Shown: positions 2-308 of the stretch, in pieces | Position numbering within the stretch: position 1 is the first letter of the stretch | Layout: the number at the start of each line of letters is the position of its first letter | Source of the DNA: Escherichia coli | GTDB lineage: Bacteria > Pseudomonadota > Gammaproteobacteria > Enterobacterales > Enterobacteriaceae | Direction: 5' to 3' (one strand) | DNA length: 308 nt | Assembly (NCBI RefSeq): GCF_003334385.1 | Contig: NZ_QOWN01000208.1 | Notes under the pieces: model-generated | What the model saw: only the letters and a program-made list of their open reading frames with translations | Told to the model about the DNA's origin: nothing | Database searches by the model: none | Made by a program: the position numbers and the translations under genes

Positions 2-55
2 CCGCCACTTGCCATTCCGTACAGAAGTCGGATATCCTTCGCCCGAAAAGCATGA
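2..55 (+). CDS. Possible 3' end of an upstream protein-coding gene (partial; C-terminus ...PPLAIPYRSRISFARKA, TGA stop at 53-55)
   Basis: Of the three forward frames, only frame 2 has a stop (TGA 53-55; next in-frame TAA 74-76) before the terminator at 81-115; frames 1 and 3 read through the hairpin. If a forward-strand gene ends before the terminator, it must be in this frame. Only 17 codons are visible, several are rare (AGA, CGG, ATA, CGA), and the product cannot be identified. The gene may equally have ended upstream of the window. Confidence 0.2.
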   Translation, partial: PPLAIPYRSRISFARKA

Positions 56-80
56 AACACATTTCTGCCATGCTAAAGAG

Positions 81-115
81 AAACCCCGGTATCAGCAGAT
101 ACCGGGGTTTTCTTT
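81..115 (+). terminator. Rho-independent (intrinsic) transcription terminator
   Basis: Perfect inverted repeat: left arm AAACCCCGGTATC (81-93) pairs with right arm GATACCGGGGTTT (98-110) around an AGCA loop (94-97). The GC-rich core is 10 bp (84-93 with 98-107), followed by the T-rich run TTTTCTTT (108-115). An A-rich stretch upstream (AAAGAGAAA) would give a weaker U-rich tract on the reverse strand, so it may act in both directions. Confidence 0.85.
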
Positions 116-182
116 CATGTCCACCGATAATCCTGTTGGTAAAAACCGGTAATGGCATAAAAATTCTGAATATCTTCACATT

Positions 183-210
183 TTCACAAACTGACTGTGG
201 CGCGTATAAT
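183..210 (+). promoter_or_regulatory. Sigma70-type promoter: -35 TTCACA (183-188), 16-bp spacer, -10 TATAAT (205-210); predicted start near G217
   Basis: The -10 hexamer matches the TATAAT consensus exactly and the -35 matches TTGACA at 5 of 6 positions, with 16-bp spacing. The region upstream (about 157-182) is A/T-rich and UP-element-like. A purine at 217 lies 7 nt past the -10. There is no extended -10 TG. Confidence 0.6.
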
Positions 211-216
211 TTCGCT

Positions 217-308
217 GCGTTAGTGTTTTTTTGCCCGAGTAACAAAAACAACTCCTTAACTCTAATCTTTGTCTGTCCCCGCAGCTCCGCGATCACTGCG
301 GGATTTTT
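217..308 (+). ncRNA. Candidate small regulatory RNA of about 90 nt (alternative: terminated 5' leader or attenuator of a gene beyond the window)
   Basis: The segment is bounded by the predicted promoter start (~217) and the intrinsic terminator at 278-308. It has no ATG; the only GTG (223-225) has no Shine-Dalgarno. It contains AACAAAAACAAC (241-252), an (ARN)4 pattern of the kind bound by the Hfq distal face, then CUCCUU (252-257), complementary to the AAGGAG Shine-Dalgarno consensus, and ends in a hairpin plus U-tail. I could not match it to any sRNA sequence I remember. Confidence 0.35.
278..308 (+). terminator. Rho-independent terminator (3' end of the candidate sRNA or leader)
   Basis: A 7-bp stem, CCCGCAG (278-284) pairing with CTGCGGG (296-302), with five G-C pairs and an 11-nt loop (285-295), followed by ATTTTT (303-308). 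The T-run reaches the window edge, so its full length is unknown. The T-tract lies 3' of the stem only on the forward strand, which gives the orientation. Confidence 0.65.

Follow-up and report, generated by a model that had tools for sequence, protein, structure and literature searches.

A terminator-type hairpin between the tail genes I and J of lambdoid prophages, beside PasB, and its probable role on the late-operon strand

The 308-nt stretch of Escherichia coli DNA analysed here (the whole of which we call the window) contains a very stable hairpin upstream of a promoter, and the question that this locus raises is on which strand such an element might stop transcription, and to what end. 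A preliminary description had placed a near-symmetrical 13-bp stem with an A-tract and a T-tract at 81-115, and the repeat search and RNA folds carried out here confirmed both the coordinates and the description. The arms AAACCCCGGTATC (81-93) and GATACCGGGGTTT (98-110) are 100% complementary over 13 bp, with a 10-bp core of CCCCGGTATC/GATACCGGGG, and enclose the loop AGCA (94-97), while A-rich and T-rich flanks (AAAGAGAAA and TTTTCTTTC) lie to the 5' and 3' sides of the hairpin respectively (Table 1). Since the A-tract and the U-tract pair with each other and extend the stem, the element is symmetrical. Folding of the + strand from 70 to 125 gave -26.1 kcal/mol (z = -6.6) and of the - strand from 66 to 125 gave -30.1 kcal/mol (z = -5.5), with none of 200 shuffled sequences folding equally well in either case, and the hairpin was still contained in a 165-nt fold of the - strand.

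The features of an intrinsic (Rho-independent) terminator are present, with a G+C-rich stem, a short loop and a U-rich tract directly 3' of the stem on both strands (TTTTCTTTC on the + strand and TTTCTCTTT on the - strand). A terminator scan matched the + strand (14 pairs, 7 of them G-C, with the tail CTTTCATGTC) and there were 2 terminator-like sites in the window compared to 0.2 expected from shuffles. On the d'Aubenton-Carafa-type score computed here, for which values above 0 are terminator-like, the two strands of the hairpin reached +47.9 (+) and +38.8 (-), and the stricter rule of the scan accepted it on the + strand only. The hairpin thus looks like an intrinsic-terminator-type element of an ordinary kind, potentially a two-way one; none of the sequence features of a strong intrinsic terminator is lacking, and action in both directions is possible, as had been proposed from its two tracts. 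Upstream A-tracts strengthen one-way terminators, and the good score on the + strand may be a by-product of the symmetry of the hairpin. A sequence further to the right, AAAAACCGGTA at 141-151, resembles the left arm at 81-91 (repeat D2) and is 82% complementary to the right arm at 100-110 (repeat I3); position 143 within it is polymorphic (A or T), the folds show no alternative structure and the similarity is probably due to chance. An antiterminator pairing of 141-151 with 100-110 was considered, but it is absent from the 165-nt - strand fold and was treated as chance.

Table 1. Positions of the features found in the window, with the evidence for each
Feature	Position	Strand	Reading	Evidence
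Weak sigma-70 promoter-like match TTGCCA-18-TATCCT	9-38	+		9/12 consensus
Weak second hairpin AGCATG/CATGCT, large loop with AAACACA	48-73		TTTT after the stem on the - strand	Score -19.9, sub-threshold
A-rich tract AAAGAGAAA	75-83	-	Reads UUUCUCUUU, a putative U-rich tail in the I-to-J direction	Sequence, score +38.8
The same A-rich tract	75-83	+	Upstream A-tract, lengthens the stem	Extended helix in folds
Perfect 13-bp hairpin (putative class A allele of the I-J hairpin)	81-110	Either		Repeat search, scan, folds, score
T-rich tract TTTTCTTTC	108-116	+	Putative U-rich tail for + strand termination	Score +47.9
Conserved upstream region (152-182) and predicted PasB promoter	152-210	+		Alignments, scan 11/12
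Predicted PasB promoter: -35 TTCACA (183-188), 16-nt spacer, -10 TATAAT (205-210)	183-210	+		Scan 11/12
PasB sRNA gene	217-308	+		Probe match, mapping, promoter, terminator
PasB terminator: stem 278-284/296-302, then T-run	278-302	+		Scan and score

Among 5,426 complete E. coli genomes, 1,651 had a match to the window, some of them as many as 6. It makes up most of a ~341-bp spacer between the tail genes I and J of lambdoid prophages. The start of gene J (tail tip, host specificity) is ~23 nt beyond the left end of the window, and the stop of gene I (tail assembly) ~10 nt beyond its right end. Both genes are on the - strand, so the + strand is antisense to the late operon and a forward-strand gene is absent upstream of the hairpin; the annotated records of the locus have no + strand gene there, and no good + strand promoter was found inside J within 500 nt. 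For a + strand transcript ending at the hairpin, the scan gave a single candidate promoter, the weak promoter-like match at 9-38. The upstream forward-strand unit whose 3' end the hairpin had been supposed to mark is thus absent, and it is on the - strand that a unit lies upstream of the hairpin, namely gene I. No - strand promoter that would give a short - strand RNA up to the hairpin was found inside the spacer, either at the scan threshold or by eye.

The promoter downstream of the hairpin belongs to an sRNA that has already been described. PasB is an 83-nt Hfq-dependent sRNA of EPEC strain E2348/69, encoded in prophage PP6 between E2348C_1436 and E2348C_1437 (PMC8550237), and its published Northern probe, AATCCCGCAGTGATCGCGGAGCT (PMC8550237 table S6), is the exact reverse complement of window positions 283-305, so the promoter at 183-210 and the terminator at 278-302 belong to the PasB gene. 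The start predicted from the promoter (~217) gives a transcript of ~95 nt. The 83-nt RNA published for E2348/69 matches window positions 232-308 and a few T past the window end, and the difference would be due to processing of the 5' end or to a published boundary that is only approximate. PasB is thus a promoter-sRNA-terminator unit inserted antisense in the I-J spacer, and the hairpin lies outside it, more than 100 nt upstream of its start. A 2026 preprint on the Pas sRNAs places PasB within a phage structural-gene operon and does not discuss promoters or the I-J hairpin.

When spacers from several genomes were aligned, homology common to all of them began only at about window position 152, the J-proximal part of the PasB spacer occurring in two unrelated versions, which we call class A (~341 bp; G1/2, ATCC 25922 and EC958) and class B (~240 bp; E2348/69, Sakai Sp11, Sp14 and Sp15, and O55:H7). 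Class A, to which the window belongs, is the commonest context of PasB (1,692 places in 1,446 genomes, out of ~2,388 PasB places), and the subtraction leaves roughly 700 places that are class B or other. The class A hairpin, AAACCCCGGTATC-AGCA-GATACCGGGGTTT, is absent from E2348/69 and from the three examined PasB loci of Sakai, a strain with existing Term-seq data (PMC7547250); these carry instead a class B hairpin, CAGGCACC(C)-loop-(G)GGTGCCTG, that is unrelated to it in sequence. On the PasB strand AAAAACAA precedes the class B hairpin, and on the tail-gene strand the hairpin is followed by TTGTTTTT; it is terminator-like on the tail-gene strand only, in the I-to-J direction, scoring +28 to +41 on the - strand and -20 to +1 on the + strand. 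Among about 50 IMG/VR copies of class B, one stem pair is C-G in 23 (the hairpin being of E2348/69 or Sakai type in 22 of these, and the flank of O55:H7 type in 1), T-A in 15 and, in a third form, a C.A mismatch on the PasB strand that is a G.U wobble on the tail-gene strand (13 copies). This variation favours selection on the tail-strand RNA, although it is suggestive only, and the argument from the wobble is weakened by the opposite bias of the loop-closing pair in the commonest class B variant, which favours the + strand (U.G on the + strand and C.A on the - strand).

The Sakai copies of this spacer have been seen in Hfq-binding data under other names. EcOnc22, EcOnc23 and EcOnc24 are Hfq-dependent sRNAs of ~85 nt in EHEC Sakai that are destabilised without Hfq (Tree et al. 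2014), and their Hfq-CRAC peaks sit in the I-J spacers of Sp15, Sp14 and Sp11 respectively. Their printed coordinates (NC_002695.1) seem to overlap the class B hairpins, which are at 2902742-2902763, 2676673-2676694 and 2166723-2166744 of NC_002695.2. The offset between the two versions is, however, about +137 to +146 at 1.94 Mb (by the position of AgvB) and ~+135 at 2.93 Mb (by the Stx1-phage tR' hairpin compared to the published 3' end of StxS), and after this correction the peaks are inside the PasB copies (~2902830-2902924, 2676761-2676855 and 2166811-2166905; L129, L130 and L131), for example at 2902849-2902909 with the PasB 3' end at 2902924. As the corrected peaks fall within PasB, EcOnc22-24 are PasB homologues, a link that is absent from both PMC8550237 (table S6) and the 2026 Pas preprint. 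An Hfq-bound + strand RNA over the hairpin was rejected, since the apparent overlap vanishes with the ~+135 correction, and the suggestion that a stable 3' end here might yield 3'UTR-derived sRNAs found no support, the published Hfq peaks in this type of spacer mapping to PasB and not to the hairpin. An AgvB-type anti-sRNA was also discounted because AgvB is located elsewhere, near the lysis genes, and has no match to the window.

Phage lambda, which has no PasB, has a hairpin of its own in its 60-nt I-J spacer. On the sense strand this reads AAACCGCC-TGCG-GGCGGTTT followed by TGTCATTT (J02459 15463-15490), and the stretch GTGAAACCGCCTGCGGGCGGTTTTGTCATTTATGGAG has the stem ACCGCC/GGCGGT, the loop TGCG and, on the late strand, a tail rich in T. 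No feature is annotated in this spacer in the GenBank record J02459. A search with the aligned I proteins gave near-identical PasB-bearing alleles only, and the diversity came from two additional scans with more distant I proteins. These gave 155 further loci with I genes of the lambda and Salmonella types, and the I-J spacer was delimited in 136 of them, these being 134 short spacers (56-128 nt, 41 distinct sequences), one of 626 nt (L294) and one of class A. A sense-strand hairpin with a T-tract was found in all 134 of the short PasB-less spacers, scoring +12 to +58 (typically ~+34) in the sense direction compared to ~+2 (range -31 to +13) in the antisense direction. The loops of these hairpins vary (TGCG, TCCG, TCAG, TTCG, TTAG, GATA and others), as do their flanks, while the stem and T-tract are kept. 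The long spacer of L294, which is of Salmonella type, ends in another hairpin, ATGCGCC-TGCG-GGCGCAT followed by TTTTTAT.

The presence of a hairpin and T-tract before J in these PasB-less relatives makes it a conserved positional feature of lambdoid tail operons. The class A hairpin shares the position and the late-strand T-tract of what we define here as the I-J intercistronic hairpins, and its - strand score of +38.8 is within their range, but it has no sequence homology to the lambda-type hairpin or spacer; a blastn search with the class A J-leader and hairpin against the 155 loci and lambda matched only the one class A locus. By these comparisons it is an analogue of the lambda-type hairpin in position and form and not a homologue, a late-strand terminator-type hairpin before J is realised by at least four unrelated sequences, and the I-J hairpin is, to judge from its distribution, older than PasB. 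The spacer of L294 also holds a different insertion, with two hairpins after A-runs, AAAAAAACAGGGCAGTGGTGCCCTG and AAAAAAAACAGGGCGGTGGAACCCTG, that are terminator-like in the antisense direction, and these may be more antisense small transcription units ahead of the final sense hairpin before J.

The hairpin in the window is thus probably one allele, class A, of a hairpin of intrinsic-terminator type that is conserved between I and J and would act on the late-operon (-) strand. The - strand is suggested as the selected one by lambda and the 134 of 134 PasB-less spacers, where the hairpin is on the sense strand, and by class B, where it is terminator-like on the - strand only; a late-strand role is further favoured by there being no annotated + strand gene upstream to terminate. 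Polymerase without the phage Q antiterminator modification would stop at about window positions 80-75 on the - strand, and stray transcription from I or from inserted upstream genes would in this way be kept out of J, lom and the tail-fibre genes in the lysogen. It is established for lambda that Q-modified polymerase reads through terminators, and in lytic growth it would be expected to read through this hairpin too, which, being stable, might also shield the 3' end of any RNA terminated there. From the observed structure and genomic position of the hairpin, the strand asymmetry of the hairpins in its relatives and the identity of the neighbouring sRNA, we infer that termination, Q read-through and a biological benefit would follow. 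Against this reading, the class A hairpin scores higher on the + strand than on the - strand, and it is ~100 nt from the start of J compared to ~20-40 nt in lambda and class B, making the positional equivalence inexact. To our knowledge there has been no functional study of the lambda I-J hairpin, and we know of no experiment that explains keeping a terminator specifically before J; our literature search found no experimental work on the lambda hairpin and no paper containing the sequence of the class A hairpin.

It is unlikely that the selected role of the hairpin is instead on the + strand, where it would block antisense-J transcription from interfering with the PasB promoter 70-100 nt downstream. 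This would fit the best terminator score and the only scan call both being on the + strand, the strong promoter at 183-210 coming next, and class A being the context of 1,692 of the ~2,388 PasB places. However, the + strand upstream of the hairpin has neither an annotated unit nor, over 500 nt inside J, a good promoter, PasB-less phages carry an I-J hairpin anyway, and class B loci, including those of strains in which PasB/EcOnc22 has been detected, have no + strand terminator before the same promoter, so insulation is not required for PasB expression. The downstream promoter that the preliminary description had shielded from read-through is thus real, strong and on the + strand, but class B expresses PasB without such shielding. 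By its symmetry the class A hairpin could also stop + strand (antisense-to-J) transcription at ~112-116, upstream of the PasB promoter; insulation of this promoter by + strand termination is plausible, but is probably a by-product, perhaps a useful one, and not the conserved function. The earlier interpretation is therefore supported in part, as a two-way terminator-type hairpin near a real promoter, with its conserved role on the other strand.

A different + strand role, which we regard as improbable, is that the hairpin is the terminator of an unannotated Hfq-type sRNA of ~70 nt (window ~45-115), transcribed from the promoter-like sequence at 9-38 in tandem with PasB. The predicted fold of such an RNA, with the weak hairpin of 48-73 as a 5' stem-loop carrying AAACACA in its loop followed by the terminator and U-tail, is stable (-31.9 kcal/mol, z = -6.9), and its linker AAG-AGA-AAC is made of three A-R-N triplets, but the z-score is mostly due to the hairpin itself and the TTGCCA-18-TATCCT promoter match is weak (9/12, with an 18-nt spacer). 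An Rfam scan at a permissive E-value found no family at its gathering threshold, the best matches (IR_84, 21.8 compared to 51, and, nearby, STnc310, 19.5 compared to 40) being terminator-driven, and the invariance of the sequence gives no conservation test. Prophage sRNA genes often cluster (PMC4104026), but no published RNA was found here, the sequence was not found in the papers searched, and the Sakai Hfq-peak candidates EcOnc33 (~71 nt) and EcOnc54 were rejected as the upstream sRNA because they are located at other prophage positions. If real, this sRNA would be new and very widely distributed, in about a quarter of sequenced E. coli. Late-strand transcripts without antitermination that reached the hairpin would carry a perfect complement of PasB, and could therefore be considered as its antisense partner or sponge, but we give a low probability to a second RNA of either sort, whether in tandem with PasB or antisense to it.

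We also think it improbable that the hairpin is an RNA element of the late mRNA only, which would not terminate transcription and would serve as an exonuclease barrier or as a processing or structure element that sets how stable, or how well translated, the I-side and J-side parts of the message are relative to each other. In favour of this, Q antitermination of late transcription would silence a terminator during lytic growth, the stability of the stem is very high, and in lambda and class B the hairpin is near the ribosome-binding site of J. A barrier to 3'-to-5' exonucleases needs no U-tract, however, and the T-rich tail is kept in four unrelated alleles (the lambda type, L294, class B and class A), which speaks for termination and not for a role in RNA stability alone. 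That the class A hairpin has no selected function at all, and is a palindromic scar or recombination junction on a young, nearly clonal module, is very improbable. It would fit the 95-100% identity of the module everywhere, the existence of deletion variants and the mosaic spacer, in which one class A module is joined to several PasB alleles. However, elements of this type are found again and again at this junction in sequences that are unrelated, and chance would be most unlikely to produce a perfect 13-bp stem and its matched tracts.

The hairpin is nearly invariant, both in its 1,692 places in 1,446 of 5,426 complete E. coli genomes (95-100% identical) and in 114 segments from IMG/VR, which leaves no covariation to support the class A allele. 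Natural variants without it are rare, namely L148 (IMG/VR, n = 2), in which a 47-nt deletion between TTTCT direct repeats (window ~66-112) takes out exactly the hairpin and leaves the remainder of the class A spacer and PasB, and L140; these show that the hairpin is dispensable for prophage persistence. A dispersed palindromic repeat (REP/BIME or MITE end) was rejected because there are only 1-4 copies per genome, and every class A locus inspected was either an I-J spacer with PasB alongside or a rearrangement derived from one. One partial match (NZ_CP032791.1 2133893-2133943) covers window positions 40-89 only and breaks off within the left arm; a gene for a tail assembly protein is annotated over it, and it is probably a rearranged locus. 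In one phage contig (L107) an IS3-family insertion at ~128 separates the hairpin from the PasB promoter, and it was therefore rejected as a class A hairpin without PasB, which is on the far side of the insertion. The 10-bp stem CCCCGGTATC/GATACCGGGG also occurs with other loops and flanks in unrelated metagenomic phage contigs (L015, L017-L020, L090 and L112), as terminator-like hairpins in which the loop is AAAC or GTTT with the same flanks, that is, a flipped loop in a palindromic stem.

A coding function was likewise considered, since in phage ASU11 a 66-aa 'hypothetical protein', gp9c, is annotated on the - strand across the palindrome (L133 1158-1358, window ~158 down to -43), overlapping the start of J. 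It has no Shine-Dalgarno sequence, its frame is broken by 1-nt deletions (L094 type, n = 4, and L092) and by the 47-nt deletion of L148, and class B has no equivalent, all of which argues for a spurious gene call.

Lambda and all of the relatives sampled, PasB-less phages included, thus have a terminator-type hairpin immediately ahead of J, the host-range gene, and we found no annotation or study of it. It would be a test case for whether Q antitermination might gate J, lom and the tail-fibre genes in lysogens. For PasB, the comparison gives the anatomy of the locus, in which promoter, sRNA and terminator are inserted between I and the hairpin in two spacer classes, together with the link to EcOnc22-24.

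Bidirectional intrinsic terminators are a well-described class in E. coli and typically lie between convergent genes. The class A hairpin resembles them in having a G+C-rich stem between an A-tract and a U-tract and terminator features on both strands, but it differs in its placement, as I and J are co-directional and the hairpin precedes the one antisense unit, PasB, instead of following it, with PasB transcribed away from it. It is similar to moron terminators and tR' in being in a lambdoid late operon and adjoining an inserted promoter-sRNA-terminator unit, with bypass by Q to be expected; morons at such late-operon sites are discussed in PMC4104026. It differs from moron terminators in that it is not the inserted unit's own, PasB having the terminator at 278-302, and in that PasB-less phages carry an I-J hairpin too. 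With PasB of E2348/69 it shares the spacer, without being part of the sRNA. The closest parallel in position is the lambda I-J hairpin, which also lies between the I stop and the J start and has a G+C-rich stem and a 4-nt loop, flanked on the late strand by a 5' A-tract and a 3' T-tract. The two have no sequence homology, the stem is 6-8 bp in the lambda type compared to 13 bp in class A, and the lambda-type score is clear on the sense strand only (~+34 compared to ~+2) whereas that of class A is high on both strands. In class A the ~170-bp PasB insertion separates the hairpin from I, and the hairpin is ~100 nt from J compared to ~25 nt in lambda.
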